Assembly (NCBI GenBank): GCA_035625205.1
Contig: DASPQB010000213.1
Coordinates: 10-64,009 of the forward strand
DNA length: 64,000 nt
Reading direction: 5' to 3'
Origin: Nitrospirota bacterium
GTDB taxonomy: Bacteria; Nitrospirota; UBA9217
Shown: piece by piece, positions 44,090-62,495 of the stretch
How positions within the stretch are numbered: the first letter of the stretch is position 1
Layout: every line of letters begins with the position of its first letter
The notes under the pieces: generated by a model
Databases searched by the model: none
Told to the model about the DNA's origin: nothing
The model's input: only the letters and a program-made list of their open reading frames with translations
Position numbers and translations under genes: made by a program

Positions 44090-45337
44090 CTATATATATT
44101 CCCCTAGCCATTTCCAGAAGCGGCTGACCGAGCCGGCGCTCCTGAAAGAACGCGGCGCTTCTTTCCGGTTTTCCGCGCCGTAAAGCACTAAACCCACCCC
44201 CGTCGCATAAATGGGACTATTGACCACATCCATCAGCCCACCGATGTTTCGCGGCGTGCCTCGCCTTATGGGGAGGCCTAAAAAGCGTTCGGCAGAGTCC
44301 TGTACGCCTTCCATGAGCGCCGTACCTCCGGTCAGGACGACGCCGGACGCGAACATGTCCTCGAACCCTGTTTTCTTAAGCCTCTGTTGCACCATCCCGA
44401 ACAATTCTTCAACGCGCGGCTCGATAATCTCGCAAAGGATCTGGCGCGACAAGAGCCGAGGTGGCCTGCCTCCCACGCTCGGAACATCAAGCGTGTCCTC
44501 ACTTTTTACAAGGGACGAGAGGGCGCAACCGTATTTGATCTTGATCTTTTCAGCCTCCGACGCAGGTGTACGGAGACCGATGGCGATATCGTTCGTAAGG
44601 TGGTTCCCACCGATAGGCAGCACTTCGGTATGCCATAAACTTCCTTCGAGAAAGAATGCGAGGTCTGTCGTCCCTCCTCCGATGTCGACGACCACGACAC
44701 CGAGTTCCTGCTCCTCGGTCGTGAGTACTGCCCTGCTTGATGCCAGAGGCTGGAGCACCAGGTCGCTCACATGAAGCCCCGCGCGAGAGCAGCTCTTCAC
44801 GATATTTTGGATGGCCGTCACCGCGCCGGTGATGATATGCACTTTCACGTCGAGCCTCGTCCCTGACATACCGTGCGGGTCCTTGATACCGTCCTGGTCA
44901 TCAATGATAAATTCCTGGGGCAGGACGTGGAGAATCTGCTGGTCCATAGGGATGTTTACCGCCCGGGCCCCGTCAATCGCCCGAGCCACATCCGCAGACC
45001 CCACCTCACGGTTCTTGATCGCTGCGACGCCGCGGGAGTTGATACCCTTGATATGGCCGCCTGAGATACCGACATAGACCGAGTTGATTTCGACGCCAGC
45101 CATGAGTTCAGCTTCCTGCACAGCTTTCTTAATAGACTCCACCGTGCTGTCGATGTTGACTACCACACCTTTTTTCAGGCCATGGGAGGGACTAATGCCG
45201 ATTCCGATGATGTCAACCTGTCCGCCTTCCTTCACTTCTCCGACTATGGCGCACACTTTGGTTGTTCCCAGGTCGAGCCCGACGAGCACATTATCAGACT
45301 TTTTTTTAGCCACAACGCCTCCTTGGGTCCGGGTCAC
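44090..45337 (-). CDS. ftsA: Cell division protein FtsA
   Basis: LVGLDLGTTKVCAIVGEV actin-like ATPase N-terminus; located between ftsQ and ftsZ. Confidence 0.9.
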   Translation of the reverse strand: MTRTQGGVVAKKKSDNVLVGLDLGTTKVCAIVGEVKEGGQVDIIGIGISPSHGLKKGVVVNIDSTVESIKKAVQEAELMAGVEINSVYVGISGGHIKGINSRGVAAIKNREVGSADVARAIDGARAVNIPMDQQILHVLPQEFIIDDQDGIKDPHGMSGTRLDVKVHIITGAVTAIQNIVKSCSRAGLHVSDLVLQPLASSRAVLTTEEQELGVVVVDIGGGTTDLAFFLEGSLWHTEVLPIGGNHLTNDIAIGLRTPASEAEKIKIKYGCALSSLVKSEDTLDVPSVGGRPPRLLSRQILCEIIEPRVEELFGMVQQRLKKTGFEDMFASGVVLTGGTALMEGVQDSAERFLGLPIRRGTPRNIGGLMDVVNSPIYATGVGLVLYGAENRKEAPRSFRSAGSVSRFWKWLGEYI

Positions 45338-45367
45338 ATGTTCATTAATCAGGGATCAGGAACGTCT

Positions 45368-46261
45368 TTAGATCTTTTTCCGGATGCTGACCCCATGCCC
45401 CTTAACCCTATCCTTTTTCACCATCACCGCAGCCTGGCGTTCAGGACGAACGTCTACATAAGAGATCTCAATGCCGCGCTGCTTTACGTCAGCCATGACT
45501 TCTGCCAGCCTGAGGAGTTTTTCTGCATACCGCCCACTTCCCAGCCTGAATTCATGATCGGCGTAGAAGACGGTAAGCGCATCGGGCGAATTCGCCCTGA
45601 CGGTGACATCCGCGAGTTGCCAGCCACCTCGTTCCGCTATTTCATGGAGGAGCAGCACGACCTCAACAAGCCCTTCTGACGTCACCTGGTCGCCGGGCCT
45701 GGCAGGATAATCTTTGATGGCCACGACCGGGAGCAGCCAGGCTGAGGGATTTCCCTTCGGTAGCGGCTCGAGAATAACTCCGTCATCATCCATTAGGTAT
45801 CGTGCAGATCCCGTATCAAGGATCATCGTCGGGATCCGCTCAGAAAACACCATCGTTATGCGGTTAGGCAAGCTGCGGTGGATCCTGACCTCCCTGACCC
45901 AGGGGTTCGCACGCGCACGCCGCGCCGCAGCTTCAAGATCCACGCGAAAAATATTCTGTCCCGTAAAGGCTGCGACTATATCTCTTAAGTCCGCCTGGGT
46001 CAGCTGCTTCACACCCTTGATATCCACCCCGGAAACAACCAACGCGTCGGCATGCACTATCATCTGGTATACCTGCCACCCGAGGAATCCGGTGCCTGCG
46101 AGCATGACCACGACCGCCATCTTGACAATCATCCCGCCAATCCCGACCGAACGGCTCCCGGTTTGCATCGCACGGCGTCCCACATCGACCCGCATCTCCC
46201 TCGTCCAGTTCGATTTACCGAGGTACGATCTAGGCACTTTTACATTCTTATAATCTCTCAT
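45368..46261 (-). CDS. ftsQ: Cell division protein FtsQ (POTRA domain)
   Basis: Single transmembrane segment, then POTRA-like region; located between ddl and ftsA. Confidence 0.8.
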   Translation of the reverse strand: MRDYKNVKVPRSYLGKSNWTREMRVDVGRRAMQTGSRSVGIGGMIVKMAVVVMLAGTGFLGWQVYQMIVHADALVVSGVDIKGVKQLTQADLRDIVAAFTGQNIFRVDLEAAARRARANPWVREVRIHRSLPNRITMVFSERIPTMILDTGSARYLMDDDGVILEPLPKGNPSAWLLPVVAIKDYPARPGDQVTSEGLVEVVLLLHEIAERGGWQLADVTVRANSPDALTVFYADHEFRLGSGRYAEKLLRLAEVMADVKQRGIEISYVDVRPERQAAVMVKKDRVKGHGVSIRKKI

Positions 46262-46296
46262 CCACGTGGACCAAACTTATACACGCTGTTAACGAC

Positions 46297-47223
46297 CTAC
46301 TTTTCCGCAATCGCCAGCCTCAAAATCTCCTCCACGAGATCGGGAAATGAGATTCCCACGCCCCGCGCAATGTCCGGCAGAAGGCTCGTGGCAGTCATGC
46401 CCGGCAGGGTGTTCACTTCAAGGATGTAAGGCGACCCGCCTGCATCAATGATGAAATCGACCCTGCTGTAGCCTCTGCAACCCAAAGCACGGTGGGCAGA
46501 CAAACCTGCATCGAGGAGGCGCTCGTATGCAGCATCATCGATCCTGGCCGGGAAGAAGTGCTCTGACATCCCTTCCTTATATTTTGCCTCATAGTCGTAG
46601 AACACATTTTTCGGCACGATCTCGATAGCACCGAGAGCCCTATTGCCCAGAACCGCCACCTGCACCTCTTTGCCGGTAATATATTGTTCGATCAATATCT
46701 CACGATCATACTTAAATGCCAGTTCGACTGCCGGAACCAGCTCTTCGTTATTGTAAATCAGGCTCACACCGACGCTCGAACCTTCGGAGCTCGGCTTCAC
46801 GACAAGTGGATATCCGATGATCGATGGGACCTCATTCACCTGCTCCCGCTTTCCTGCATCAAGGACCATATAGGGGCCTACAAGAAGGCCGTGGGCCTTG
46901 AACAACAATTTAGAGAGGATCTTATTCATGCCCACAGCACTCGCAAGAATGCCCGAGCCTGTGTAGGGGATGCCCTCGATTTCGAGCAGCCCCTGGATTG
47001 CGCCGTCCTCGCCGAACTTCCCGTGCAGACCGTTGAATGCGATCTCGATTCCTGACGTGCGGATAACTTCTGCAACATTCCTCGTCACATCGATGGCGAC
47101 AGCATTGTACCCTTTTTCCTTCAACGCTTTCAGGATGGCACTGCCGGTCGAAAGCGATACCTCTCGTTCGGAAGAGATGCCGCCCATTAATACGCCGATT
47201 TTTTTGTTCGTTACCAATCCCAT
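46297..47223 (-). CDS. ddl: D-alanine--D-alanine ligase
   Basis: KIGVLMGGISSEREVSLSTG ... ATP-grasp Ddl signature. Confidence 0.9.
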   Translation of the reverse strand: MGLVTNKKIGVLMGGISSEREVSLSTGSAILKALKEKGYNAVAIDVTRNVAEVIRTSGIEIAFNGLHGKFGEDGAIQGLLEIEGIPYTGSGILASAVGMNKILSKLLFKAHGLLVGPYMVLDAGKREQVNEVPSIIGYPLVVKPSSEGSSVGVSLIYNNEELVPAVELAFKYDREILIEQYITGKEVQVAVLGNRALGAIEIVPKNVFYDYEAKYKEGMSEHFFPARIDDAAYERLLDAGLSAHRALGCRGYSRVDFIIDAGGSPYILEVNTLPGMTATSLLPDIARGVGISFPDLVEEILRLAIAEK

Positions 47224-47256
47224 GGCTCTTGACTTCTGCTCCTTGGCTTTTTCTCG

Positions 47257-48165
47257 TTAATCCTCTCCGATAATCTTAATCTCCGGCTCGAGCCGCACAC
47301 CGTGGATTTGAAGCACCTTTTGCTTCACGATCTCCATGAGCGCCAGCACTTCCGATGCCTTGGCATTGCCTCTGTTCACAATAAAATTGGCGTGTTTCTC
47401 GGAGACCTGAGCACTGCCCACGGATGTGCCTTTGAGCCCCGCTGCTTCTATCAGTTTGCCTGCCGACTCTTCCTGAGGATTCCTGAAAACCGAACCAGCG
47501 TTCGGTAGTCCTACTGGCTGCCACTGTTTCCTCGTACCGAGAATTTCCCTGACCTGTTCTTGAATCTTGTTCCGGTCGCCGCGACGCAGAATGATACGGA
47601 CGTCAAGGATTGCGTGCCCTTCCGGAATCGCGCTTGTCCTATACCCAAATTTCATCTCCTCTCGACCCCTTGTTACCATGTTGCCTTCGGGCGAAAGCAG
47701 TGTTACAGAATCAACTACATCGCCGAACTCTCCTACAGTGGTACCGGCATTCATGCATACTGCTCCACCCACGGTACCCGGAATGCCGGTGATAAATTCG
47801 AGGCCCGTCAGCCCTTCCTTGACGCAAAAAGAAAGGAGCTTCTGCAGTGGCACGCCGGCCTCTACAAAAACGACGGTGAACGCGCCACCGATCGAGCGAT
47901 ACTCGCGTTCAATCTTCATGGCCTGCATACGCTGCAGGCTGATCACAATGCCGCGAAACCCGCCATCCCGCACAAGGAGATTTGTTCCTCCTCCAAGGAC
48001 AAAGCATTTCAGTTTTTTTTCTCTTATCTCCTGTAAAAGGGTTGCAAGATCGTTGCGGTCGACGGGAATGGCAAATACATCTGCTGGCCCTCCGATGGCA
48101 TACGACGTATGTCTGCTCATCGGCTCATGCCGCTTGATTTCACCTTTAAAGCCTGTGATCTCCAT
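47257..48165 (-). CDS. murB: UDP-N-acetylenolpyruvoylglucosamine reductase MurB
   Basis: [13 protein letters not shown] ... [11 protein letters not shown]-binding signature. The start is placed at MEITGF (48165), which overlaps the end of murC by 20 nt. Confidence 0.85.
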
Positions 48166-49531
48166 GCCGTAATTTCTCCAGAACTTGTTCACCCAGTTTC
48201 CAGACGTCTCCGGCACCGAGCGTGATCATGAGATCCCCTTTGTTGAGGACCTTTGTCAAGTGCTCGATCAGCTTATGCCGTTCTGGTATAAACGTGACGT
48301 CTTTGTGCCCGTGCTTCTTAATACCCTCGTAGAGCGCATGCCCGCTTACGCCGGGGATCGGCTTCTCTCCTGCCGCGTAAATGTCCATGACGATAAGCTT
48401 GTCCGCCTGGTTGAATGCCGTACAGAATTCCTCGAGAAGATACTGGGTCCTCGTGTACCGGTGCGGTTGGAACACCGCTACCACTCGCCGCTCCATACCC
48501 GCAGCCGCTGCTGCAAGTGTGGCCTTGATCTCCGTTGGATGGTGACCATAATCATCTACGACGATGACGCCACCCGCCTCTCCCTTGATTTGAAAACGTC
48601 TCTGCACGCCGCTGAACTCCCGAAGCGCCTTGCGGATCGTTTCAATATCGATGTCCAACTCGCACGCCACTGCGATCGCTGCAAGGCTGTTGCTGATGTT
48701 GTGCACACCCGGTACAGAGAGCTCAAAGAGCCCGAGGTCCTTGTTGTGATTCATCACTTTGAAAGTCGATCCCAGTGGACGGAGCGAGATGTCCCGCGCA
48801 TGGTAGTCGGCCTGAGTGCTCATACCGTAGGTTTGATACCTTTTCTGGAGCGACGGAATGAGCGCCTGGATGTGAGGCTGGTCAAGACAGAGGACGGATA
48901 CGCCATAAAAAGGGACCTTGTTAATGAATGTGAGGAAGGCCGCCTTTATTTCATCGATGTCTTTATAGTAATCTAGATGCTCCGCATCGATGTTCGTGAC
49001 CACGGCGATCGTCGGCGATAGTTTGAGAAAACTCCCGTCGCTCTCGTCCGCCTCGGCAACAAGGAACTCGCCCTGGCCGAGTTTGGCGTTCGTTCCCAGG
49101 CTGTTCAGTTTTCCACCGATCACGACGGTGGGATCAATGCCTCCCGCGGCAAATACCGTTGCAACCATGGAAGTCGTTGTGGTTTTGCCATGCGCGCCTG
49201 CGATCGCTACTCCGTACTTGAGCCGCATGAGCTCCGCGAGCATCTCGGCCCGTGGGATTACCGGTACCTGCTTCTCACGCGCAGCGATAACCTCCACGTT
49301 GTCGTTTTTTACCGCTGACGAGATCACGACCACGTGCGGCGATGTGATGTTCTCGGCCCGGTGGCCAACAAAGATCTCTCCGCCAAGACGCCTCAACCGT
49401 TCCGTCGTGTCTGATTCTTTGATGTCTGAGCCGGAAACGTTATATCCAAGGTTCAAAAGCACCTCGGCGATGCCGCTCATACCGATACCACCGATGCCGA
49501 CAAAGTGAATATGCTTAATTCGTTTGAACAT
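48146..49531 (-). CDS. murC: UDP-N-acetylmuramate--L-alanine ligase MurC
   Basis: [18 protein letters not shown] ... [11 protein letters not shown] Mur-ligase motifs. Confidence 0.9.
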
Positions 49532-50606
49532 AGTCCTTACACATCCTCACGATCTCTTCTGCTCCCGTATTTTCCATACACGGTGTACGTGAAGGAGCGT
49601 CCTGCCCGACGTACTCTAATATCAGCCTGGCCAATGTCTCTGGCTTGAGGTCCCGCTGTGCAATCACGACCGCCGTGCCCCGCTCTGCCAGCGTTCGCGC
49701 ATTGTACTCCTGGTGATTATCGGCTGCGAAAGGATACGGTATCAGCACGGCGCGCTTTCCACAGACGGCGAGTTCCGCTACGGTTGTGGCGCCGGAGCGT
49801 GATACCACGAGGTCCGCGGCCGCGTATGCGCCTGCCATGTCTTGAATATAGGGTAGCACCACTGCATGAACGCCTGCATCACGATAGCTTGCTGCAACTT
49901 CAGTAACGTCCTTCTCGCCGGTTTGATGCAGGATCTGGAGATGTTCTGTTTTATTTAGAATGCCTGCAACATCCTTCATGGCCATGTTGATAGCATGGGC
50001 ACCGCCGCTCCCGCCCATAACAAAGACTGTAAAGTTTCCGGGCACAAGCCCGAAATCCTTGAGAGCTTTCTCACGATTCCCCTCGTCGATACCTTTTCTG
50101 ACCAGCGGGCCGACCTTCTTCGTCTTCTTAGCCGGGAAAAACGGCTGCGCCCCTGTGCCAGGAAAAGAGAGGATGACCTTACTTGCCAATCTCCCCAGCT
50201 TTCTATTTGCCAGTCCGGCATAGGAATTGGGCTCCACGATCAAAAACGGGATCCGGACGACCCAGGCAGCGAGTGCCACCGGTCCCGAGGAATACCCTCC
50301 CACGCCGATTACCACATCCGGTCTCTTTTCGCGGAGCAGGCGTATGGACTGCATTACGCTCAGCGGCAGTGTAACTATCGTTTTCACTGCAGAGCCGAAC
50401 GTCATGCCTTTCAGCTTTCCCACGGTGATGAAACGGACCGGCAGCCCTTCACGCGGAAGCACTTTTGCCTCGATTCCCTGCTCCGTGCCGATGAACAAAA
50501 CATCGTTGTTATGTTCTTTCAGCACTTCGCGCGCAATGGCGATCCCGGGATAGAGATGCCCACCAGTCCCTCCACCGGCGATGACGACTTTCATAGTTTT
50601 GTTCAC
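49515..50606 (-). CDS. murG: UDP-GlcNAc:undecaprenyl-PP-MurNAc-pentapeptide GlcNAc transferase MurG
   Basis: [19 protein letters not shown] ... GT28 signature. Confidence 0.9.
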
Positions 50607-50627
50607 CCGGATCTTGGCTCCTCGAAG

Positions 50628-51740
50628 CTATCCGGTTTCTTTTGAAACATTTAATAATACCCCGAGCGCTCCCATGGTTATGACGAGCGACGAGCCTCCA
50701 TAACTTACCAGCGGAAGGGCAATGCCTTTGGTCGGCAGAAGCCCCGTGACCACAGCCATGTTGATCAGGCCCTGAAGGCAGATAAGTAGCGTCATGCCTA
50801 GGGCCAGGAGCCTGCTGAATGGGTCACCGACGGCCAGAGCGATACGGACGCCGCGCCACAGGATGATCAGGAAGAGCAGGATCACGACGAGCGCTCCGAT
50901 CAACCCCAGTTCCTCACCGATCACGGCATAGATGAAATCCGAATGCCGCTCTGGCAGGAAAAAGAGCTTTTGCCGCCCCTCCCCCAATCCGCGGCCAAAC
51001 AAGCCTCCGCTCCCGAAAGCTAGGAAAGACTGGATGATCTGGTGTCCTGCACCCTGCGGATCGGACCAGGGATCGAGAAATGCGACTATCCTTCTCCACC
51101 GGTATGCCTTGTGTGTCACGGCGACTATGACTAATGGAAGCACCGCAAGCAGCGTGCCGCCGATATGAAAAATATTCGCTCCTCCCGCAAAAAGCATGAT
51201 GACTACAACACAGGCAAGTGTCATGGCACTGCCAAAATCCGGCTGGAGGACAGCCACGCTCAGGAACACTACAGTCACGACATAGGCCGGCACCACCCCG
51301 TTCATGAAATCTCGGATACGCTCCCCTTTCTTGGCGATATAGTAGCTCATGTATACAACAACCGCCACCTTGGCGAGTTCTGCCGGTTGAAATGACATCA
51401 TGCCAAGCCGGAGCCACCTCCGCGACCCATTGACCATTCTGCCAATACCGGGGACGAGCGTGACCGCGAGGAGCATAAACGAGATCGCCATGATGGCCAG
51501 CACAACTTTTTGACCAGACAATATGTGGTGATCGATGCGCATGGTAACCGTCAGGAGTGCGAGGCCCACGGCTGCCCACAAGAGTTGCCGTTTCATGAAG
51601 AACGATGAGTCGTCATAGGTCGTAAGCGCCACCATGCTGCTGGAACTATATACCATCACCACGCTGATAACGAGCAGCATCAAGATAGCAAAGAGCAGCG
51701 TCTTGTCGTATTGTCCTTTATCGTGCGTCACATGTCGCAT
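50628..51740 (-). CDS. ftsW: Peptidoglycan glycosyltransferase FtsW (SEDS family)
   Basis: 370 aa polytopic SEDS protein lying between murD and murG in the dcw cluster. Confidence 0.9.
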   Translation of the reverse strand: MRHVTHDKGQYDKTLLFAILMLLVISVVMVYSSSSMVALTTYDDSSFFMKRQLLWAAVGLALLTVTMRIDHHILSGQKVVLAIMAISFMLLAVTLVPGIGRMVNGSRRWLRLGMMSFQPAELAKVAVVVYMSYYIAKKGERIRDFMNGVVPAYVVTVVFLSVAVLQPDFGSAMTLACVVVIMLFAGGANIFHIGGTLLAVLPLVIVAVTHKAYRWRRIVAFLDPWSDPQGAGHQIIQSFLAFGSGGLFGRGLGEGRQKLFFLPERHSDFIYAVIGEELGLIGALVVILLFLIILWRGVRIALAVGDPFSRLLALGMTLLICLQGLINMAVVTGLLPTKGIALPLVSYGGSSLVITMGALGVLLNVSKETG

Positions 51741-51755
51741 TAACCCTACCCCTCT

Positions 51756-53093
51756 TCACAGGTTCATAACCGCTTCTTTAAATTGTCTTCCCCGGTCTTC
51801 GAAGTCCCTGAACATGTCGAAACTGGCGCATGCAGGAGACAGCAGCACCACATCTCCCCGTGAGGACTGTGCCGCGGCTAATTTTACTGCATCCTGGAGC
51901 GTCTGCGCGAATACAGTCTCTGTGGAGCTACCGAGAGCTTTTGCCATCTTATCCGCTGCTTTGCCGATCAGAATCAGCAGCTTCACTTTTTCCTTGAACA
52001 GATTGCAGAGAGGGCTAAAGTCACTTCCCTTGTCCAGCCCTCCCGCGATCAGGATGACCGGGTTGGTGAATCCTTCGACGGACTTCACGACAGCGCCCAC
52101 GTTCGTGCCTTTCGAGTCGTTAATCCAGGCGACTCCGTCCTTTTCCCGCACGAACTCAAGCCTGTGCTCAAGGCCGGGAAATTCCCTCAATACGGCCGCC
52201 ACGGACACAGAATCGGCATCAGCGCACATAGACAGCGCTACGGCCGCGAGTGCATTCTCGAGATTGTGTACGCCTTTGATCTTGATCTCATCAGTACGTA
52301 TGATCCGCCTATTGTTGAACGTAAGGTATCCATCCAGGAGGCAGGCGCCTGGACTAAACCGAAGCAGCCGCGAGAAGGGTATCACCGTGGCTGACGTACG
52401 ATTTGCATAAGACTTCACGAGCGGATCATCGAAGTTGAGAATGGCAAAATCATCTTTTCGCTGATTCATCAAGATACGCGTTTTTGCTTCACCGTACTCG
52501 GCAATGTCGTGGTACCGGTCAAGGTGGTCCTGTGTGACATTCAGGATCGCCGCAATGCGGGGATGGAATGTCTCAATATATTCAAGCTGGAAGCTCGAGA
52601 GTTCGGCGACGATCCAATCCCGTTGTTTCAATAAGGCGATGTCTTCTGTCAAGGCGTTCCCGATGTTCCCTGCGACGAGTACCTTCTTCCGGGCACGCCT
52701 GAGCATGAGTCCCACGAGCGTCGTGACTGTGGATTTGCCATTTGTTCCCGTGATACCGACATAGGGCGCATCGGAGAGCAGCCAGGCAAGCTCAAGCTCG
52801 CTGATCACATGTATACCGCGATGCTGCGCAGCGCGGATTTGCGGGATCCGCGGTACGCCGGGACTCAGCACAATGAGATCAGCTTCGAGAAAAATACCGT
52901 CTGGATGTCCCCCCCCTTTAACAACGATGCGGTCGTCGCCGAGGGACTTCACTTGTGCACCAAGCTGGTCCAACGGCTTTATGTCTGTCACCGTAACGAT
53001 CGCCCCAAGGGCATGAAGCGCCCGCGCCGCGGCGACCCCACTCCGCGCTAACCCGACGACTGTCACTCTCCTGCCTCGAAAATCCTCTTTCAC
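51756..53093 (-). CDS. murD: UDP-N-acetylmuramoylalanine--D-glutamate ligase MurD
   Basis: DFRGRRVTVVGLARSG ... GITGTNGKST. The start is set at the GTG at 53093 (GAGGG ribosome-binding site); the ORF-track start is 53153. Confidence 0.85.
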   Translation of the reverse strand: MKEDFRGRRVTVVGLARSGVAAARALHALGAIVTVTDIKPLDQLGAQVKSLGDDRIVVKGGGHPDGIFLEADLIVLSPGVPRIPQIRAAQHRGIHVISELELAWLLSDAPYVGITGTNGKSTVTTLVGLMLRRARKKVLVAGNIGNALTEDIALLKQRDWIVAELSSFQLEYIETFHPRIAAILNVTQDHLDRYHDIAEYGEAKTRILMNQRKDDFAILNFDDPLVKSYANRTSATVIPFSRLLRFSPGACLLDGYLTFNNRRIIRTDEIKIKGVHNLENALAAVALSMCADADSVSVAAVLREFPGLEHRLEFVREKDGVAWINDSKGTNVGAVVKSVEGFTNPVILIAGGLDKGSDFSPLCNLFKEKVKLLILIGKAADKMAKALGSSTETVFAQTLQDAVKLAAAQSSRGDVVLLSPACASFDMFRDFEDRGRQFKEAVMNL

Positions 53094-53203
53094 GTTACCC
53101 TCAACTTTTTTCTCAAGGGAAGCACGAAGCTCACTTCGTGACGAACACACCACGAAAATGCTAATGTTTTCTGTGACTCCCTCGTATCGTGGTCAGAGAG
53201 CCA

Positions 53204-54286
53204 TTATCTCAGTTTCAACGTACTGATCGAAATTAAAGCCAAGATGATCCCGATGATCCAGAAGCGGGTGATGACCTTCGACTCGGCCCATCCAATCTGT
53301 TCAAAGTGATGATGAATCGGCGCCATCTTGAAGATACGCTTTCCCGTCAGCTTATACGATGCTACCTGGAGAATCACGGAGGCCGTTTCGATGACAAAAA
53401 TCCCCCCCACAATTACTAGGATCAACTCGTGCTTTGTCACTACTGCCAGCGTGCCAAGGGCGCCACCAAGAGACAAGGATCCTACATCGCCCATGAACAC
53501 CTCAGCGGGATGTGCGTTGTACCACAGGAACCCGAGGCTCGCGCCCACCAAGGCGCCGCAGAAAATTGCAAGCTCGCCGCTGCCCGAGATGTAGAGGATC
53601 TTCAGGTAGTCCGCGATGATCTTGTTCCCGCCAAGATAGACGATCACCGCATTGGCCGTAGCTGCAATGCCCACAAGGCCGATGGCAAGGCCGTCAAGAC
53701 CATCTGTGAGGTTCACGGCGTTTGAAGAACCCACGATCACGATGACGACAAAGGGGATGTAAAACCATCCCAAATCGAGAAAAAGCCTTTTCAGGAACGG
53801 TACCGAAAGGTACGTACTGTTCGGGTCGCCGGGATTACAATAGAGGAAAATTCCGATCACTGCCGAGGCTAATATCTGGAGTCCGAATTTCTGCACCGCC
53901 AGCAACCCGGTGGACCGTTTCTTCACGACTTTAAGGTAGTCATCCCAGAAGCCGATCCCCCCGAACGTGAGAGTCGCAAAGAGCACGATCCATACGTATT
54001 TGTCCGTTAAGTCGGACCACAAGAGCACGGAACTCACGAGTGCCGCAACAATGAGAAGTCCGCCCATGGTCGGCGTCCCCTGCTTGGCAAGATGGCTTTG
54101 GGGACCGTCGCTCCTGACGTGCTGGCCCACTTTGAGTCTGCGGAGCCAGGCAATCATCGATGGGGCCAAGATGAACGTTACAATGAGCGCCGTCAGGACG
54201 GCACCGGCGCTCCGAAACGTGATGTACCGGAATACGTTAAAACCGGAGAAGGTATCACGCAGCGGATACAGCAAGTGATAGAGCAT
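53204..54286 (-). CDS. mraY: Phospho-N-acetylmuramoyl-pentapeptide transferase MraY
   Basis: Polytopic; [13 protein letters not shown] and HHHFE motifs. Confidence 0.9.
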
Positions 54287-55662
54287 TAAAATGCCTCCAG
54301 AATCTTTTCCATCTTCATTCCCCGTGAGCCTTTGATGAGAATGACATCGCCCGGATGCGTCAGCTGTTTCAGCAGCCTCCCTGCGTTCTCTCGCGACATC
54401 GCCCCGAGCACCTGCTCTTTCTTCATTCCCGCTTCCAGGGCGCCCTTTTCGACGTACGTTGCCTGCTCGCCGATCGTTATCAGGAGATCCACCTTGAACT
54501 GCGCTGCCGTATGCCCGACTTCACGGTGTGCTTCTGCCGACATCTCTCCCAACTCGAGCATATCCCCGATTACAGCAATCGCCTTCCTCCCGGATTTAAG
54601 CGATACGAGCGTTTTGATCGCCGCCTCCATGGAAGCAGGATTTGCATTGTAGTAATCAGCAAGGACGGTCCTGCCTTCGATCCTTTTTAACTCAGACCGT
54701 CCGGCTACCGGCAGAAATGCATCAAGTCCAAATTTTACCATATCGATCGGAACGCCGACTGCGAGTGCGGCGGCAGCAGCTGCAAGGGCATTATACACAT
54801 TATGTGTTCCCATGGCGCGCAGCCGAATGTCAATGCGTGCGTCATCAGCCACAATCGTCACATCGGAATATTCCATCCCCTGACGCACATCGGATGCCAT
54901 GACGTCGGCCTTGTTGGCGACGCCGAAGGTTACAAGACGCCCGGCAAACCTCTTTTTCATGACGCCAAAATATTCATCGTCGGCATTCAAAACCGCTGTT
55001 GCCTCCGATTTAAGGTTGTCCAGGAGTTCACCTTTCGCCTGCGCAACATTGTCCATCGTGCCGAGAAACTCAAGGTGTGCGGGACCGATGTTGGTTATGA
55101 CCCCGACCGTGGGCATGACAATCCTCGCAAGCAGGTCAATCTCCCCCGGCGCGCTCATTCCCATTTCGATGACGCCTGACCAGTGGCTGCCGTTCATTTT
55201 CAAGAGTGTAAGCGGAACGCCGATATGGTTGTTCAAGTTGCCCTCGTTCTTGAGCACCGGCCCTTTCTGTTTCAGGATGGACGCAAGCATTTCCTTAGTC
55301 GTAGTCTTGCCATTCGAACCCGTGATGCCGACGACGGGGATGGCGAATTTTTTTCGGTGTAAATGAGCCATCTCCTGGAGAGCATAGAGCGTATCTTCTA
55401 CCGGAAGGATGTTCTTCAAGCCTCCGAGGTTCGAGAACTTTTGTTCCAGTTCGGTCCGTTCCACGAGCGCACCCCAAGCGCCTTTCTTGATCGCATCCTT
55501 GACAAAATCATGGCCGTCAAAATGGTCACCCTTAAGAGCGATGAATAGTTCTCCCTCCTTTATGTTCCGGGAATCAATGGACACCCCTTTAATTTCCAAG
55601 CGCCAAACCCTCCCTACAACTTCCCCGAGCGTCTTTTTTTCTGAATTGTTCATGGCACACAA
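54286..55662 (-). CDS. murF: UDP-MurNAc-tripeptide--D-alanyl-D-alanine ligase MurF
   Basis: [14 protein letters not shown] and a Mur-ligase C-terminal domain. Confidence 0.9.
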
Positions 55663-55726
55663 CGATATTGCATGTTCCCGGGTCCATGCAGTCTCTTAAA
55701 AAAGCGATCCCCTCCTGCATCGCGCA

Positions 55727-57262
55727 TCACAACCATCTCCTTTTTAGCATCTCATCCCTGGCTACTTCCCGGTCGTCAAAGTGGATCTTTTTTTCTCCAA
55801 TGATCTGGTAATCTTCATGCCCTTTGCCTGCCAGGACAACAACGTCTCCGGGTTTCCCCATGGCAAAGGCCGCCTTGATTGCGTCACGTCGGTCGGGAAT
55901 GACCAGATAAGGCGTCTTGCCGGTACCTGCCGTGCTGCCCGGATCGAGGTTTTCAACTTTCACTGCGATCGATACCATGCCGTCTTCTATCTCTCCGATA
56001 ATCGACAGCACATCCTCGGTCCTGGGGTTATCTGTTGTGATGATCACAATATCGCTCCCCTTCGCCGCGACACGGCCCATCTTCGGTCGCTTCGTCCGAT
56101 CACGGTCGCCTCCGCACCCAAAGACGGTTATGACCCGTCCCTCGGTGATCTCCCGGACGGCTTCAAGCAGCCTCTCGAGGGCGTCCTCCGTATGAGCATA
56201 ATCAACGATTACGCCGAAGGGCTTTCCGTCCCCTATCTTTTCCATGCGTCCAGGAACGGCTCGCATGGTTCTCAAGCCCTCTGCAATCACCGTGGTCTTG
56301 AAACCCATAGCAACGCCGATCGCTGTGGCGATGAGGATATTATAGATGTTGTGCCTGCCCACGAGCGGCGATTCGACTGTTACCAGCCCTGAAGGTGTAG
56401 CGACGTCGAAGGTGAGACCGTGAATGCCGTGGTGCATCGCTCCCAGGGGCCGCACATCTGCGCGCACTGAAAGACCCGTCGTGATTACTCTCGCCTTCGT
56501 CGCCCTGATGATATCCCCTGCCCGCATATCATCAATATTAACAACTGCGCATGCGTCCGGACTAAGGCCTTTAAACAGCAGAAGCTTTGCTTCAAAATAA
56601 GAATCCATGGTTTTATGGAAGTCCAGGTGATCTTGCGTCAGATTCGTGAAGGCGGCAACGGCGAACCGACATCCCACGGTTCTGCCCAGTGCAAGAGCGT
56701 GCGATGAGACCTCCATGATGCAGATCTCAGTTCCGAGGTCTGCCATTTCGGACATCAATCGCTGCAGTTCAAGCGATTCTGGCGTCGTGTTCGGTGCGGA
56801 ATAGACCTTGCTGCCCACGCGGTAATCGATAGTGCCGATAAGGCCCACGGTGCCGTGAGCGGCCTCGACAATAGATTTCACGAGATAGGTGGTGGTGGTC
56901 TTACCGTTGGTTCCGGTCACTCCGACGAGCTTCAACCTTTCCGACGGATGATTGAAAAAAGCATCGGCGAGGAGCGCAAGTGCTTTGCGCGAGTCATTGA
57001 CGCCAATCAGCAGCGCACTTCCCGCATCGGCATTACTCTTCTGTTCGGCAACAACGGCGATTGCCCCCTGCCTCATAGCCTGCGGAATAAACTGATGGCC
57101 GTCCGAGTGAAATCCTCGCACGGCCACAAACAGGGAACCCGGTACTACCTTCCGGGAATCATGGGCAATGTCTCTCACCTCGCTCTCCAACGTTTCACGC
57201 GGTAGCGTTGCGTCTAATTTCAGTACCTTCAGGAGGTCTCCAAGCTTCACCGAGACAGACAC
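55727..57262 (-). CDS. murE: UDP-MurNAc-L-Ala-D-Glu--2,6-diaminopimelate ligase MurE
   Basis: GVTGTNGKTTTTYL ... DNPR motif. The start is set at the GTG at 57262 after GGGAGGAG; the ORF-track start at 57373 adds about 37 aa that look non-native. Confidence 0.85.
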   Translation of the reverse strand: MSVSVKLGDLLKVLKLDATLPRETLESEVRDIAHDSRKVVPGSLFVAVRGFHSDGHQFIPQAMRQGAIAVVAEQKSNADAGSALLIGVNDSRKALALLADAFFNHPSERLKLVGVTGTNGKTTTTYLVKSIVEAAHGTVGLIGTIDYRVGSKVYSAPNTTPESLELQRLMSEMADLGTEICIMEVSSHALALGRTVGCRFAVAAFTNLTQDHLDFHKTMDSYFEAKLLLFKGLSPDACAVVNIDDMRAGDIIRATKARVITTGLSVRADVRPLGAMHHGIHGLTFDVATPSGLVTVESPLVGRHNIYNILIATAIGVAMGFKTTVIAEGLRTMRAVPGRMEKIGDGKPFGVIVDYAHTEDALERLLEAVREITEGRVITVFGCGGDRDRTKRPKMGRVAAKGSDIVIITTDNPRTEDVLSIIGEIEDGMVSIAVKVENLDPGSTAGTGKTPYLVIPDRRDAIKAAFAMGKPGDVVVLAGKGHEDYQIIGEKKIHFDDREVARDEMLKRRWL

Positions 57263-57380
57263 CTCTCTTTTTCTCCTCCCGCGCAACGAGGGCGAAATTT
57301 GGAAAGGCGGGGATGATGGTCGAGATGACGCAATGGCATCTCCTTGCATACTTTCGTACAAAGAACATCTCAAGGACGAG

Positions 57381-59111
57381 TCACCTGGTCACCAACAGCA
57401 TCCTGCCTCCCACGTCATCAGGCGGCACCTGCAGGTATGCGAGGCTCTGTTCCGCCACGGCCCGAAACACCGGCGCCGCCACCGTCCCGCCGTAAATGTC
57501 ACCCTCGGGGGTATCAATCATAACGAGGATGACAAGTTTTGGCGATAGGACGGGGGCGAAGCCAATAAAAGAGCTGACATACTCTTTCTTCGAATACAGG
57601 CCCGTCCGCTGATCGATCTTTTGTGCCGTACCGGTCTTGCCTGCCGCAGTGTATCCGGCCGGCTTCGCCTCTTGGCCCGTACCCATATCGACCACCCGCT
57701 TCAACATGCTATTCACCTTAGCGCAGGTCTCCTCCGTCACGACGCGCCCTACGGCCCGAGGCCCGAATTTCTTTCCCCCTTCCCCATTACGGTCAATGAT
57801 CTCCGATACAATATAGGGCGTCATCATCATACCACCGTTTGCAAGTGAACAGTACGCTGTTGTCATTTGTATCGGCGTCACTCCGATCCCCTGACCGATC
57901 GCGATCTCGCCGATGGAAACTCCAGACCACAGCCGGCAGTCCCGAAGCAGGCCTGGTATTTCTCCAGGCAGATCCACTCCGGTCTTTTTGCCGAAACCGA
58001 AAGCGCTAATATACTTGAAAAACCGTTCTTTTCCAAGCCGCAGCGCGACTTTGATCGTGCCCACATTGCTCGATTCCGCAATCACTTCGGCAAAGGTAAG
58101 CACGCCGTTCCTGTGAGCGTCCTTGATCTCCCGATCTGCAAGCTTGATGCTTCCGGCGCTGCAATCGAACCGCTCAAGGGGATGTACCACACGCTCTTCC
58201 AGTGCCGCAGCAGCGAGGACCGGCTTGAAAATGGAGCCGGGCTCGAACGCATCGGTCACTGCCCTGTTCCGCCACTCCGCAGGTTTATAGCGCTGCGGCT
58301 CATTAGGGTTAAATGCTGGATGGCCGTATCCGTTCGTTCGGACCGAGAGCGCAAGCACTTCTCCGGTCTGTGGGCTCATGACGATGCAGACTCCTCCCTT
58401 TGCATGGGAGCGCGCAAGCGATGCATCGAGCTCTTTTTCGGCAATATGCTGAATCACCTCATCGATGGTAAGTGTGATGTCATGGCCAGCTCTCGGCAAT
58501 TTATACTGGAAGCCGGGGCCACCGGGAAATACCATCCTGCCTCTTGCGTCTTTTTCAGCCAGCACCCATCCGCTCACACCGTGGAGGATCTTGTCGTACT
58601 CGCGCTCCAGACCTTCAAGACCTTCGTTATCAACACCTGTAAATCCGATAAGCGGTCCAGCGAGGGATTTGTTCGGGTAAAATCGTCGTGCCTCCGGGCG
58701 GAGTTGGACCTCTTCGGAGCCCATTTCTTTAACCTTTTCAGCTTTTATCGGGTCAACTTTTCGACTGAGCCACACGAAATGCTTGTCGCCGCCTAATTTT
58801 CGTTCGAGCATGCCTGGATCTTCGCGCAGGATACGGGAAAGCTGTTGGGCCAGTTCGCGGGGATTTTCGATCTTCGAAGGAATACCGTATACTGAATCAA
58901 CGTCGAGGCTGACAGCCAGCTCTCTGCCCATGCGGTCACGGATGGTGCCCCGCATGGGTTCGATTGTTACCACCTGTTCCTGCTGTCGTTCAGCTTTGGC
59001 CGTGAGTTTTGCACGCTCGATGACCTGCAGGTATACGAGACGCAGAGCCACGAGCGTGAATCCCAGGACCATGATGAACAACACTGCGATTATTCTCCCC
59101 CGTCGTTCCAT
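57381..59111 (-). CDS. ftsI: Peptidoglycan D,D-transpeptidase FtsI (PBP3, class B PBP)
   Basis: N-terminal transmembrane segment, then PBP dimer and transpeptidase domains with SxxK (GSIFK), SxN and KTG (KTGTAQ). Confidence 0.9.
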   Translation of the reverse strand: MERRGRIIAVLFIMVLGFTLVALRLVYLQVIERAKLTAKAERQQEQVVTIEPMRGTIRDRMGRELAVSLDVDSVYGIPSKIENPRELAQQLSRILREDPGMLERKLGGDKHFVWLSRKVDPIKAEKVKEMGSEEVQLRPEARRFYPNKSLAGPLIGFTGVDNEGLEGLEREYDKILHGVSGWVLAEKDARGRMVFPGGPGFQYKLPRAGHDITLTIDEVIQHIAEKELDASLARSHAKGGVCIVMSPQTGEVLALSVRTNGYGHPAFNPNEPQRYKPAEWRNRAVTDAFEPGSIFKPVLAAAALEERVVHPLERFDCSAGSIKLADREIKDAHRNGVLTFAEVIAESSNVGTIKVALRLGKERFFKYISAFGFGKKTGVDLPGEIPGLLRDCRLWSGVSIGEIAIGQGIGVTPIQMTTAYCSLANGGMMMTPYIVSEIIDRNGEGGKKFGPRAVGRVVTEETCAKVNSMLKRVVDMGTGQEAKPAGYTAAGKTGTAQKIDQRTGLYSKKEYVSSFIGFAPVLSPKLVILVMIDTPEGDIYGGTVAAPVFRAVAEQSLAYLQVPPDDVGGRMLLVTR

Positions 59112-59117
59112 AGGCGT

Positions 59118-59483
59118 CTAGTCTTTTGGTTTTTTTCTCTTCACGATGACGATGTTTTCCTTTGCTGGTCTGACCATGCCCAGCCGTTTTACTGCAAGAT
59201 CCTCAATCCTCGCCGGGGAAGCTAGGCTCGACGCCTCGATCCGCAGGGAACTGTTTTCGCGCTCGAGTTCCTGCTTCTCGTGTTCCAGAGACTCGATCTG
59301 ATATCCAAGACGCATGATCTTAACCTTACCGCCGACGTACAAAAGCAATCCGGTGATAATGAGAAGAACAACAACGACACGCCGGAAATTTCCACGTCTG
59401 CTCCTCTCGAACACCAATGACCCTATGTTGCCGACCGGCGCATGCATACGATAACTCTTTCTCCCATAAATTGACAGTTGCAA
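59118..59483 (-). CDS. ftsL: Cell division protein FtsL (septum formation initiator)
   Basis: Small bitopic protein with a transmembrane segment and a leucine-zipper-like coiled coil, between rsmH and ftsI. Confidence 0.7.
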   Translation of the reverse strand: MQLSIYGRKSYRMHAPVGNIGSLVFERSRRGNFRRVVVVLLIITGLLLYVGGKVKIMRLGYQIESLEHEKQELERENSSLRIEASSLASPARIEDLAVKRLGMVRPAKENIVIVKRKKPKD

Positions 59484-59553: not shown

Positions 59554-60483
59554 TCACGGAAGTTTCTCTGCAGCCCTTAGCTTGGCGCTCCGTGAGGCGG
59601 GGTTCATATCAATTTCGTCTGATCCCGCACTGATAGGCCGGCTCGTCAGAATCTTGAGCACTGGTTTTTTCCCACACGAGCAGACCGGCAGTTTCGGAGG
59701 GCAGATGCAGCCTTTGGCAGAAACTGCAAAAGCCTGTTTTACCACGCGATCCTCGAGCGAGTGAAACGAGATTACCACGAACCTTCCGCCGGCTTTCAGC
59801 AGGTAAATAATCTTGTCTACGCCTTCCCGTAACGCACCGAGTTCGTCATTGACTGCTATTCGCAGGGCCTGGAAGGTAAGTGTAGCTGGGTGGATACGCC
59901 GGGGAGGGTAAGGAGGAAATACACGCGAGACAATTTCCGCCAACTGGACCGTACTTGTGATGGATCCCCGGGCTCTCGCCCTCACTATGGCATTTGCAAT
60001 GGCGCCAGCCCTGCGCTCTTCCCCGTATTCGCGGATTATCCTCGCAAGTTCGTCCCGCGAAAGGTTATTTACCAGGTCCGCTGCAGTCTGTAGCCTGCTT
60101 GTGTCCATGCGCATATCAAGCGGACCCTCCAGCAGGAAACTAAAACCTCGTTCCGGACTCTTGACGTGAAACCATGAAATACCAAGGTCCAAGAGCACGC
60201 CGTCGACGCAATTATATCCTAGTCCTGCCAATACGTCGGGCATGTTCCGGTAATTCGCCTGTCGAACGATTGCCCGCTTACCGTAAATCGCAAGTGACGC
60301 TTTCGCCCGCTCAACGGCTTCGTAATCCTGATCTAAGCCGATCAGAATACCATCCGGAGCCGACCTGTTCAGGATCTCCGCAGCATGCCCTCCGGCTCCA
60401 AGCGTTCCGTCGACATAGACCCCCCCAGACCGCGGTGCAATCAGTTCAACGGCTTCCCGGAGCAAAACGGGAATGTGCTCCAC
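59554..60483 (-). CDS. rsmH: 16S rRNA (cytosine1402-N4)-methyltransferase RsmH (MraW)
   Basis: HIPVLLREAVELIAPRSGGVYVDGTLGAGGHA ... ISFHSLEDRVVK. The start is ambiguous: the GTG at 60483 gives MEHIPVLL, and the GTG at 60552 is an alternative. The ORF-track start at 60801 is an out-of-context extension that overlaps the STAS gene. Confidence 0.8.
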   Translation of the reverse strand: MEHIPVLLREAVELIAPRSGGVYVDGTLGAGGHAAEILNRSAPDGILIGLDQDYEAVERAKASLAIYGKRAIVRQANYRNMPDVLAGLGYNCVDGVLLDLGISWFHVKSPERGFSFLLEGPLDMRMDTSRLQTAADLVNNLSRDELARIIREYGEERRAGAIANAIVRARARGSITSTVQLAEIVSRVFPPYPPRRIHPATLTFQALRIAVNDELGALREGVDKIIYLLKAGGRFVVISFHSLEDRVVKQAFAVSAKGCICPPKLPVCSCGKKPVLKILTSRPISAGSDEIDMNPASRSAKLRAAEKLP

Positions 60484-60568
60484 CTTCGGAGCCGGTAGGT
60501 TGGCGTGAAGAGCATTTGATCCTCCGCCATTTTCCCTTAGATGATTTTTCACTCCATACTCTAAACGT

Positions 60569-60928
60569 TTATAATCCCAGCGGGAGGTTCGTCGCCGGTT
60601 TTGCCACTCCAAAGCTTTTTGCGGCCTGCTGGACCGTTTCAAAGACCTGGAATTCTTCGAGCACGCCTGTGGTGCGAAAAATATTTTTGATATAGTCCGA
60701 CAATGCGGCGAGCCTAATATCGCCGCCAAATGACTGGAGCCGACGTTTTTCTTCGACCAGCGACGGCAGGATCGTGAACTGGATGTGCTCCGCTGACTCA
60801 AAGTTTAGGATCAGACCATACATTTCGCCCTTAATGAGCTGGCCAATCACGCGGTTAATCTCAGCCATCTTCGCTGAATCAATCTCGCCTTCAAGGTTCA
60901 TCTGATATACTTTGAGTTTTTCGTCCAT
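60569..60928 (-). CDS. STAS-domain (anti-sigma-factor-antagonist-like) protein lacking the phosphorylatable Ser, inserted between mraZ and rsmH
   Basis: 119 aa ORF. LILNFESAEHIQFTILPSL ... FGGDIRLAALSDYIKNIFRTTGVLEEFQVFETVQQA follows the SpoIIAA/STAS fold pattern, with ATG start and TAA stop. Confidence 0.55.
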   Translation of the reverse strand: MDEKLKVYQMNLEGEIDSAKMAEINRVIGQLIKGEMYGLILNFESAEHIQFTILPSLVEEKRRLQSFGGDIRLAALSDYIKNIFRTTGVLEEFQVFETVQQAAKSFGVAKPATNLPLGL

Positions 60929-60932
60929 GTCA

Positions 60933-61367
60933 TTACAGGCCCAATGCGGCGAGCGCCTCGCCGATCTTGTCGCCGTTCTGATTATTGCGCGCCTCCCACG
61001 CCTTGGCGTCCCATATTTCTATCTTGTCGATGATCCCGACAAGCATCACGTTTTTGGTTATGCCCGCATGTTCTCGGTGCGGCGGGGGAATGAGAATTCG
61101 ACCCTGTTTATCGAGTTCGCACTCCGTGGCCGACGAAAGCAGGAAGCGCCTGAAGTCCTTGACCTCTTGCTTCATGAGAGAAAGGGTCTTAATCTTCTCT
61201 TCGAGCCGCTCCCATTCTTCGAGCGGATAGACTGTGAGACAGCGATCATAGTCCATTGCGAGGACTAGTCTGCCGTCATAACGGTCTGCAATGATATCAC
61301 GAAATTTTGAGGGCACGCTCACTCTGCCTTTGGAATCCACGGTATGTTCAAAACTGCCTCTGAACAT
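60933..61367 (-). CDS. mraZ: Transcriptional regulator MraZ
   Basis: MFRGSFEHTVDSKGRVSVPSKFRD ... second DxxxR repeat. The start is at MFRGS; the ORF-track start at 61499 is an extension. Confidence 0.85.
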   Translation of the reverse strand: MFRGSFEHTVDSKGRVSVPSKFRDIIADRYDGRLVLAMDYDRCLTVYPLEEWERLEEKIKTLSLMKQEVKDFRRFLLSSATECELDKQGRILIPPPHREHAGITKNVMLVGIIDKIEIWDAKAWEARNNQNGDKIGEALAALGL

Positions 61368-61370
61368 GTC

Positions 61371-61440
61371 CCTCCCTCGTGTACCCACCACTTCCCACTT
61401 TATACCACCAACTGCTCGAAGTATATATTTCATGTCATGC
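61371..61440 (-). promoter_or_regulatory. Pmra-like sigma70 promoter with downstream MraZ-box direct repeats
   Basis: On the minus strand: TTGACA (61438-61433), a 17 nt spacer, TATACT (61415-61410), then GTGGGaaGTGGTGGGT repeats with 10 bp periodicity at 61390-61373, upstream of the mraZ start. Confidence 0.5.
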
Positions 61441-61552
61441 AATGTCAAGAAAAATATTAATTTTTCATATGTTACACGGTGGGTAATATATTTTGGCATT
61501 GTACGTTATTAGCGTGACAAAGTTGCCACAATAAAGTAATATATTTGAAGTT

Positions 61553-61858
61553 ATGATCACTAATTATTTCATCGCCGTTAGCGATGAACATGTGAAACGT
61601 GAGAAGGCAAGGGCGCGCGATTTACGCGCTTCACAATGGTGGAAACGGAAACGTTCTGCGGGAATCTGTCACTACTGCGGAAGGACTTTCAAGCCTGCCG
61701 ACCTGACGATGGATCATCTGATACCAATTGCCCGCGGTGGGAAATCCATCCAGGGAAATCTCGTTCCTGCGTGCAAAGACTGCAACAACAAAAAAAAATA
61801 TCTCCTCCCCACAGAATGGGAGGAGTATCTAAATACCCTCAAAAAGGATCAACTATAA
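61553..61858 (+). CDS. Small HNH endonuclease
   Basis: CHYCG...DHLIPIARGG...NLVPACKDCNNKK is the HNH ββα-Me motif. It is divergent from mraZ and preceded by GTGACA-17-TAATAT. Confidence 0.7.
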   Translation: MITNYFIAVSDEHVKREKARARDLRASQWWKRKRSAGICHYCGRTFKPADLTMDHLIPIARGGKSIQGNLVPACKDCNNKKKYLLPTEWEEYLNTLKKDQL

Positions 61859-61928: not shown

Positions 61929-62495
61929 CTACCCCGTCGCTCTTACCCAGTCCACCCTCGCAAGTTTGTTGTCATGCGACCATCGATAGCTCACTTCTCC
62001 ATGAAACGCTTTTTTAATTGCGCGCCCGATACGCTGCGCAAGCTTCTCATTCGTGGTGGAGATCACGATGCTTCCATATCCGTTCTCCTTCACGGCGATC
62101 ACCCGCTCGAGTGGATTTAGTCCACGCGCCCGCTCCTCCTCATTCCTCACGAGGTTCATCAGATCCGTCTTGTGAGGAAGCACGTAGTCTCCTCTCAACG
62201 TTACAATGCCGCCGGGAAAATTATCACGAATTTTCATACACGCCGGACAAACCACGGACACAGTCTCAGGCATCTTCTTTGCCTTCGTGTACACCACGCT
62301 GTCAGCATACCACCTCTTGTTCATGTATACCGCCCGGCACCCCTCGCATAGGGAAACGCTGCGGCTTGCACCCCGAGGCATATAGGGATCGGTCGTGGAT
62401 GATTTCTTTTTATAAGTCTGCTTGTATGTTCGTTCTACTTTTTTTCCGACCATCTTCATAGGGACCGCCTCCTTAATCATCGTCAAAACTACCAT
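61929..62495 (-). CDS. Hypothetical C4 zinc-ribbon protein
   Basis: CEGC ... CPAC cysteine pairs followed by an approximately 100 aa conserved-looking domain; no confident family assignment. Confidence 0.45.
   Translation of the reverse strand: MVVLTMIKEAVPMKMVGKKVERTYKQTYKKKSSTTDPYMPRGASRSVSLCEGCRAVYMNKRWYADSVVYTKAKKMPETVSVVCPACMKIRDNFPGGIVTLRGDYVLPHKTDLMNLVRNEEERARGLNPLERVIAVKENGYGSIVISTTNEKLAQRIGRAIKKAFHGEVSYRWSHDNKLARVDWVRATG

Follow-up and report, generated by a model that had tools for sequence, protein, structure and literature searches.

Organization of the mraZ-rsmH region

The subject of this study is a small gene encoding a STAS-domain protein, found in a 64,000-nucleotide stretch of DNA from a Nitrospirota bacterium (GTDB lineage UBA9217; assembly GCA_035625205.1, contig DASPQB010000213.1), which is referred to here as the window. 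MraZ heads the cluster of division and cell-wall genes (dcw) in most bacteria, and a complete 17-gene dcw cluster, mraZ to ftsZ, extends from 61367 to 42761 of the window on the minus strand, which carries every gene of this part. The gene order is canonical except for an extra open reading frame (ORF), the STAS gene, between mraZ and rsmH. An earlier note, made from the letters of the sequence, had placed such a gene inside the dcw cluster at this junction, and this is borne out by an ORF of 119 amino acids (60569-60928, minus strand) with a Pfam STAS match. The span of 60484-60932 given in that note covers the STAS ORF together with the spacer up to GTG 60483, and the note describes it accurately.

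The mraZ gene (60933-61367, minus strand) encodes 144 amino acids and matches the Pfam MraZ family at E 2.2e-36 and TIGR00242 with 153 bits, the cut-off of the latter being 98. Its stop codon, TAA, is followed by four nucleotides (TGAC) and then by the ATG of the STAS gene, the product of which bears the signature residues H48, F51 (the phospho-Ser site) and Y79 and ends in the tail NLPLGL. On the other side, rsmH (59554-60552, minus strand; Pfam Methyltransf_5, E 8e-109) encodes 332 amino acids from the start codon favoured below, GTG 60552. The rsmH frame is open up to 60801, so that the STAS ORF overlaps its upstream extension, as had been pointed out from the sequence. Then follow ftsL (59118-59483, minus strand), matching Pfam DivIC and FtsL at E ~1e-9, and ftsI, murE, murF, mraY, murD, ftsW, murG, murC, murB, ddl, ftsQ, ftsA and ftsZ (42761-59111, minus strand), all assigned by Pfam matches and with an intact murB ORF.

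Upstream of mraZ, a pattern scan found a Pmra-like sigma-70 promoter (61420-61448, minus strand) of the form TTGACA-17 nt-TATACT, with 11/12 consensus matches; the -10 region ATATATACT is kept upstream of mraZ in the Nitrospirota loci described below. Between the -10 and the mraZ Shine-Dalgarno sequence lie three boxes resembling MraZ-binding repeats (61384-61408, minus strand; GTGGT-N5-GTGGG-N5-GTGGG, 10-bp period). The strict three-box pattern is present at -40 to -44 in 36 of 51 Nitrospirota loci, the remaining loci being one base off. Published MraZ-binding repeats consist of GTGG[A/T]G in three copies with 4-nt spacers (bioRxiv 10.1101/2022.02.09.479790), and the boxes of the window match this architecture, which is the textbook layout of a MraZ operator. 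A terminator-like hairpin (61825-61802) ends the upstream minus-strand gene, and the minus-strand pattern scan from mraZ to ftsL found no promoter-like or terminator-like site. The STAS gene is likely to be co-transcribed from Pmra, because the promoter lies upstream and no internal promoter-like or terminator-like site follows it.

The region resembles that of the MraZ-RsmH (MraW) pair of E. coli, B. subtilis and Mycoplasma in its Pmra with three GTGG boxes of 10-bp period and in all other gene order, but in the window it is the STAS gene, not rsmH, that directly follows mraZ. No third protein in this pair was described in the literature searched. Full-text searches for mraZ or dcw combined with STAS or anti-sigma antagonist gave nothing relevant, and a cross-phyla survey of dcw gene order made no mention of a STAS insertion.

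Conservation of the STAS gene and its position

Close relatives were scanned with one genome per GTDB species. This gave 53 loci, all but one of them from metagenome-assembled genomes (MAGs) titled Nitrospirota, Nitrospirae or Nitrospiraceae, with a STAS identity of 76-97% across the loci. The order mraZ-STAS-rsmH-ftsL-ftsI was intact in 52 of the 53. The exception (L052, 3595-3985) is a 390-nt fragment consisting of the last 18 mraZ codons and STAS residues 1-109 with a different C-terminus, preceded by genes for a HAMP histidine kinase and a sigma-54 response regulator; the same MAG has a normal locus (L006), and duplication, pseudogene formation or chimeric assembly could account for the fragment.

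The Nitrospirota STAS family forms one cluster in a library clustered at 50% identity, and the next full-length relatives are 25-44% identical. At 15 of the 17 distinct loci from distant relatives, which showed 20-49% identity to whichever query found each, the STAS gene lies in the slot between mraZ and rsmH, with GC contents of 30-71%. As listed, the in-slot distant loci are L054, L056-L059, L061-L063, L065, L067 and L069-L075, and L060, L064, L066 and L068 are duplicates of four listed distant loci; a metagenome scan with the P0283 family gave 8 loci. Two of the 15 in-slot loci are contig-end fragments, with only a MraZ-like C-terminus upstream in L054 and only rsmH downstream in L057. Two distant lineages are named Thermodesulfobacteriota and 'Deltaproteobacteria' in the source records, which are MAGs. 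The distant exceptions are a weak 31% match (L076) and a fusion of a zinc ribbon with STAS (L055). The latter (4001-4612; P0122) is a protein of 203 amino acids with an N-terminal zinc ribbon, PF23545, followed by a dcw-type STAS domain keeping H-V-H-F; at 44% identity it is the closest relative found outside the dcw cluster, and it adjoins a response regulator with an AraC-type helix-turn-helix. The comparison of dcw clusters in relatives, which had been proposed as a check in the earlier note, shows that the slot of the STAS gene between mraZ and rsmH is conserved.

The STAS ORF is a real gene under strong purifying selection. The median ratio of nonsynonymous to synonymous substitution rates (dN/dS) was 0.08 for 977 pairs from 48 full-length orthologues, and 0.018 with respect to the closest relative. 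A first homologue search yielded 320 clusters at E <= 0.001, with 81-94% identity among the 120 matches listed, and an exact-sequence look-up of the window protein returned no record.

Domain assignment and predicted fold

The STAS ORF matched PF01740 at E 7e-11 with 42.3 bits (gathering cut-off 22.6), residues 7-102 being aligned with profile positions 10-106 of 106, and a family profile searched with HMMER against solved structures found SpoIIAA at E 4e-13. The AlphaFold2 model had a predicted local distance difference test score (pLDDT) of 87.9 and a predicted template modelling score (pTM) of 0.81, with alternating strands (E) and helices (H): E7-16, H18-33, E38-49, H51-66, E70-74, H78-87, E94-96 and H99-105. 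In Foldseek comparisons the model superposed on SpoIIAA (1TH8_B, 1TID), RsbV, RsbS and TM1081 with template modelling (TM) scores of ~0.7-0.76. As modelled, the protein is a single domain with a SpoIIAA-type fold. The profile hidden Markov model check proposed in the earlier note agrees with the structural superposition, and the two outcomes which that note had named as speaking against the gene, non-conservation in relatives and lack of STAS similarity, were not observed.

More specific models fitted the protein less well. It scored 41.1 bits with TIGR00377 (anti-sigma-factor antagonist), below the cut-off of 53.45, and 30.2 bits with TIGR02886, below that of 114.75; PF13466 (STAS_2) gave no match to the window protein at E <= 1. 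Compared with SpoIIAA and RsbV (PF01740; TIGR00377), it is likewise a single domain of ~115 amino acids with the same beta/alpha STAS fold (TM 0.72-0.76), but the subfamily to which it belongs has Phe or Tyr in place of S58 and Gln, Asn or His in place of D57, the protein does not reach the NCBIfam cut-off, genes for a partner kinase or phosphatase are absent nearby, and the gene is in the mra operon and not in a sigma-factor operon.

Loss of the phospho-serine in a dcw-type subfamily

In the HMMER alignment with SpoIIAA of G. stearothermophilus (1TH8_B), residues Q50-F51-T52-I53 lie opposite D57-S58-S59-G60, of which we take S58 to be the phosphorylated residue (the residue numbering was confirmed by counting the sequence). 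A by-eye alignment had offered T52 as a phospho-site; this candidate was rejected, as HMMER pairs the phospho-Ser with F51 and T52 is not conserved. Among 54 Nitrospirota STAS sequences H48 and F51 are invariant and position 52 is variable (Thr in 45, Ala in 7, Arg in 1 and Met in 1). The distant relatives located in dcw clusters all have H-I-[NHQ]-[FY], with His once at the last position, and the canonical relatives aligned with them show [FY]-I-D-S-[AS]-G. Among the best 150 representatives from an exhaustive search of the library clustered at 50% identity, the phospho-site is aromatic in 59, of which 54 also have the His.

Judged from these alignments, there is a distinct dcw-type STAS subfamily in which H-I-[NHQ]-[FY] replaces [FY]-I-D-S-x-G and the canonical phospho-serine is lost. 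The window protein shows the full signature, H48-x-x-[FY]51 and Y79 in the mraZ/rsmH slot, and the absence of a phosphorylatable Ser-Gly motif, remarked on in the earlier note, is confirmed by the Phe that takes the phospho-serine position in the SpoIIAA alignment. Its members occur in several lineages that diverged deeply, and nearly all of those found sit between mraZ and rsmH. Pfam and NCBIfam have no model specific to it, and current annotation mislabels its members 'anti-anti-sigma factor'. The family so defined is a large STAS subfamily without a phosphorylation site, comprising at least 54 clusters at 50% identity, and in it a known fold occurs with an altered active-site motif in a functional context that is new and conserved. 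The descriptive part of these findings, namely the gene, its fold, the loss of the site and the position, is in our opinion very probably correct.

The rsmH start and the spacer hairpin

The ambiguity of the rsmH start raised in the earlier note is real, since both GTG 60552 (332 amino acids, 16 nt past the STAS stop) and GTG 60483 (309 amino acids) belong to the rsmH frame. In the closest relative (L001, 97% STAS identity) the codon equivalent to 60483 is GTA and the one equivalent to 60552 is still GTG, and in L005, L002 and L017 an ATG is aligned with GTG 60552 ('GMKN' or 'GMKK' versus 'GvKN' in the window). Because of these aligned codons GTG 60552 is favoured as the rsmH start, which would give a spacer of 16 nt to the STAS gene, and the stretch 60484-60568 is probably for the most part 5' coding sequence of rsmH.

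In most Nitrospirota relatives the sequence from the STAS stop to the conserved RsmH N-terminus folds as a long hairpin, the arms of which are complementary tandem heptamers such as (TGCGGAT)n and (ATCCGCA)n; examples are L006 4360-4515, L030 4360-4483 and L042 4365-4474. The heptamer unit varies between sub-clades while the complementarity of the arms is kept. The minimum free energy (MFE) reached -65 kcal/mol, and z was < -3 in 23 of 47 relatives. The counterpart in the window, from the STAS stop to GTG 60483 (60484-60568, minus strand), is a decayed remnant with degenerate heptamer repeats (MFE -24 kcal/mol, z -1.55). The heptamer repeats had no occurrence elsewhere in the 8-kb loci, Rfam held no family matching the spacer hairpin, and its strand asymmetry, examined as an indication of RNA versus DNA function, was not significant (p 0.12).

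Depending on the sub-clade, the rsmH start is located in the loop (GAGGA-N8-ATG), in the last repeat of the 5' arm or at the 3' foot of the stem. The window retains GGAGGA-N5-ATG (ATG 60515-60513, minus strand) at the site that corresponds to the loop start of the relatives; this ATG is out of the rsmH frame and opens an ORF of 24 codons. Since the repeat unit is 7 nt long, changes in copy number would shift the frame. Translational control of rsmH, RNA processing and repeat slippage are possibilities for the role of the hairpin.

Relation of the STAS protein to MraZ and RsmH

The distance from the mraZ stop to the STAS ATG is 1-4 nt in 49 of 52 Nitrospirota loci, and such a junction suggests translational coupling of STAS to MraZ. 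From the STAS stop to the start of the conserved RsmH homology the distance in Nitrospirota is usually 79-153 nt, and this interval is structured. Among the five proteins compared STAS evolves most slowly, with mean p-distances of 0.185 for STAS, 0.195 for MraZ, 0.266 for the penicillin-binding protein (PBP), 0.278 for RsmH and 0.33 for FtsL. With PBP divergence controlled, the divergence of STAS followed that of MraZ (partial Mantel r 0.46, permutation p 0.0005); the correlation with RsmH was weakly positive and not significant (r 0.17, p 0.07), none that was significant was found with FtsL, and the value for MraZ and RsmH was r 0.04. In addition, both neighbours end in LGL in Nitrospirota, MraZ with ...AALGL (60936-60956) and STAS with ...NLPLGL (60572-60589), a tail that is conserved in this clade and modelled with low confidence. 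MraZ oligomerises by docking of its C-terminal helices on neighbouring subunits; its activity depends on this docking, and DNA binding is affected (PMC12957436). The shared LGL ends may, speculatively, be a case of docking-peptide mimicry. In the other lineages with a dcw-type STAS, MraZ mostly ends in LG[LI] (7 of 9 lineages) and the STAS tails are [FYW]-[QH].

The mraZ-adjacent position across very divergent lineages points to a MraZ/RsmH functional context and not to a sigma factor. Our preferred reading, to which we would give a probability of about 0.4, is that STAS is a phosphorylation-independent adaptor or partner of the MraZ module, possibly also including RsmH. STAS would be made from the Pmra transcript with its translation coupled to that of MraZ, and would act without phosphorylation as a protein-binding adaptor through the usual STAS interaction face, here the beta3-alpha2 loop with H48 and F51 together with the start of alpha3 with Y79. 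By binding MraZ it could tune how MraZ oligomerises or binds the GTGG repeats, and hence dcw transcription, possibly in concert with RsmH, whose gene counteracts MraZ toxicity in E. coli. The low-confidence C-terminal tail, conserved within each lineage (NLPLGL here and [FYW]-[QH] in others), may be a docking peptide. A more specific form of this proposal, in which dcw-type STAS is a dedicated MraZ-binding co-regulator, either anti-repressor or co-repressor, and the Nitrospirota hairpin adds a second layer of control, is put forward as a doubtful extension.

AbbA for AbrB and SinI for SinR are small proteins that serve AbrB/SinR-type transcription factors as anti-repressors or co-regulators. 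The analogy would be confined to the proposed logic, a small protein that modulates by contact the DNA binding of an oligomeric AbrB-fold regulator, as the folds are unrelated, and we know of no STAS protein that targets an AbrB/MraZ-type regulator. If the proposal is true, an AbrB-fold transcription factor would be a new class of STAS partner, STAS would be the missing signal input to the conserved MraZ/Pmra switch controlling ftsL and ftsI expression, and in Nitrospirota a hairpin at the translation start of rsmH would separate the control of the mraZ-STAS pair from that of rsmH-ftsL. Lying between mraZ and rsmH in several deep lineages, and no less conserved than MraZ, STAS is a natural candidate for the missing MraZ regulator. 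Recent papers on MraZ still describe the role of MraW as unclear (PMC12957436; 10.1101/2022.02.09.479790), and the latter states that the lethality of MraZ is relieved in E. coli, and is not relieved in B. subtilis, by the gene that directly follows mraZ.

Several points weigh against a partnership with MraZ. Outside Nitrospirota it is often rsmH to which STAS is tightly joined (L058, 1-nt gap; L061, 4-nt overlap; L057, 0 nt), and the gaps between mraZ and STAS are 20-120 nt there, with 121 nt in L059 as an example of a long one; therefore the operon layout gives MraZ no preference over RsmH. Close linkage, or comparable constraint on two proteins that are both small and slow to evolve, could account for the Mantel signal. 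The dcw clusters keep their gene order in general, which makes position alone weak evidence of physical interaction, and the sampling was anchored on STAS, so it tells where the gene is located when present and not what share of dcw clusters carry it. The resemblance of the STAS tail to MraZ is confined to the Nitrospirota clade, and the contact between STAS and MraZ is itself putative.

Some of the same observations could instead be explained if STAS were directed to RsmH, the 16S ribosomal RNA m4C1402 methyltransferase, binding it so as to regulate its activity or localisation or mediating the antagonism between RsmH and MraZ. In every case rsmH comes immediately after the STAS gene, the two frames overlap or abut in L058, L061, L057 and L070, none of them Nitrospirota, and the weak STAS-RsmH correlation is positive. 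However, STAS co-varies far less with RsmH than with MraZ, and Nitrospirota usually have the 79-153 nt structured spacer before conserved rsmH as opposed to 1-4 nt between mraZ and STAS. We regard an RsmH-directed role as unlikely.

Other explanations for the conserved slot

Another explanation would be a ligand- or nucleotide-sensing STAS with its target outside mraZ and rsmH, such as a divisome or peptidoglycan-precursor enzyme or a MlaF-like ATP-binding cassette (ABC) ATPase, the operon then serving for co-expression only. Some STAS domains bind GTP, ATP, lipids or acyl carrier protein, and the extreme conservation of the protein fits a multi-contact role. MlaB of the MlaFEDB lipid transporter (STAS_2, PF13466) is a phosphorylation-independent STAS binding subunit, and many dcw-type relatives also match this MlaB-like family. 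The window protein, though, has no such match, its gene has no mlaFED or other transporter genes as neighbours, and its closest structures are SpoIIAA and RsbV, with no MlaB structure among the top 50 structural matches listed. The precise position between mraZ and rsmH would also be left unexplained, and this possibility appears quite unlikely.

The earlier note had interpreted the gene as part of a partner-switching-type module, and in its classical form this would mean that STAS acts as an anti-anti-sigma factor, sequestering an RsbW/SpoIIAB-type kinase encoded elsewhere and so linking a sigma factor to the division operon. The closest structures and sequences are indeed SpoIIAA, RsbV and RsfB, the source records annotate the homologues as 'anti-anti-sigma factor', and non-phosphorylated antagonists exist, M. 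tuberculosis RsfA being an example. A search for RsbW-like kinase and PP2C partners, suggested in the same note and limited here to the 66 ORFs of the 64-kb window, found by Pfam no HATPase_c (RsbW/SpoIIAB) kinase and no PP2C/SpoIIE phosphatase; the sole 'kinase' among these ORFs is an unrelated ABC1/UbiB-type protein (38390-40003), and partner enzymes inside the window were accordingly rejected as candidates. Since an invariant Phe or Tyr replaces the phospho-Ser, the protein scores under the TIGR00377 cut-off and the window provides no partner enzymes, the classical partner-switching reading is not supported. The subfamily is moreover tied to mraZ and rsmH and not to sigma or anti-sigma genes (52 of 53 close and 15 of 17 distant loci). 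The protein has an anti-anti-sigma fold, yet the defining features of the partner-switching family fail wherever tested, and we consider a role in classical partner switching decidedly improbable.

That the STAS ORF is spurious, decaying or a functionless, recent selfish insertion, for which the lack of a strong Shine-Dalgarno sequence before its ATG could be cited, can be dismissed with near certainty and was ruled out by the median dN/dS of 0.08, by the length and sequence kept across 53 species genomes and 320 protein clusters, and by the confident fold prediction.

Other genes of the window

Divergent from mraZ lies an ORF of 101 amino acids with an HNH-endonuclease domain (61553-61858, plus strand; Pfam HNH, E 2e-14). 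It is found at this place, with 56-85% identity, in 52 of 53 related loci and is unusual beside a core operon. Upstream of the HNH gene is an ORF of 188 amino acids (61929-62495, minus strand) with CxxC pairs and a sub-threshold NMD3-like match (23.4 bits versus 24.9), which is kept in 31 of 53 related loci and is followed by the terminator-like hairpin at 61825-61802. At the other end of the window, and unrelated to the STAS finding, a protein of 473 amino acids (1945-3366, minus strand) combines DUF1858, DUF438, hemerythrin and PAS_10 domains, an architecture of a putative sensor of O2, NO or iron.

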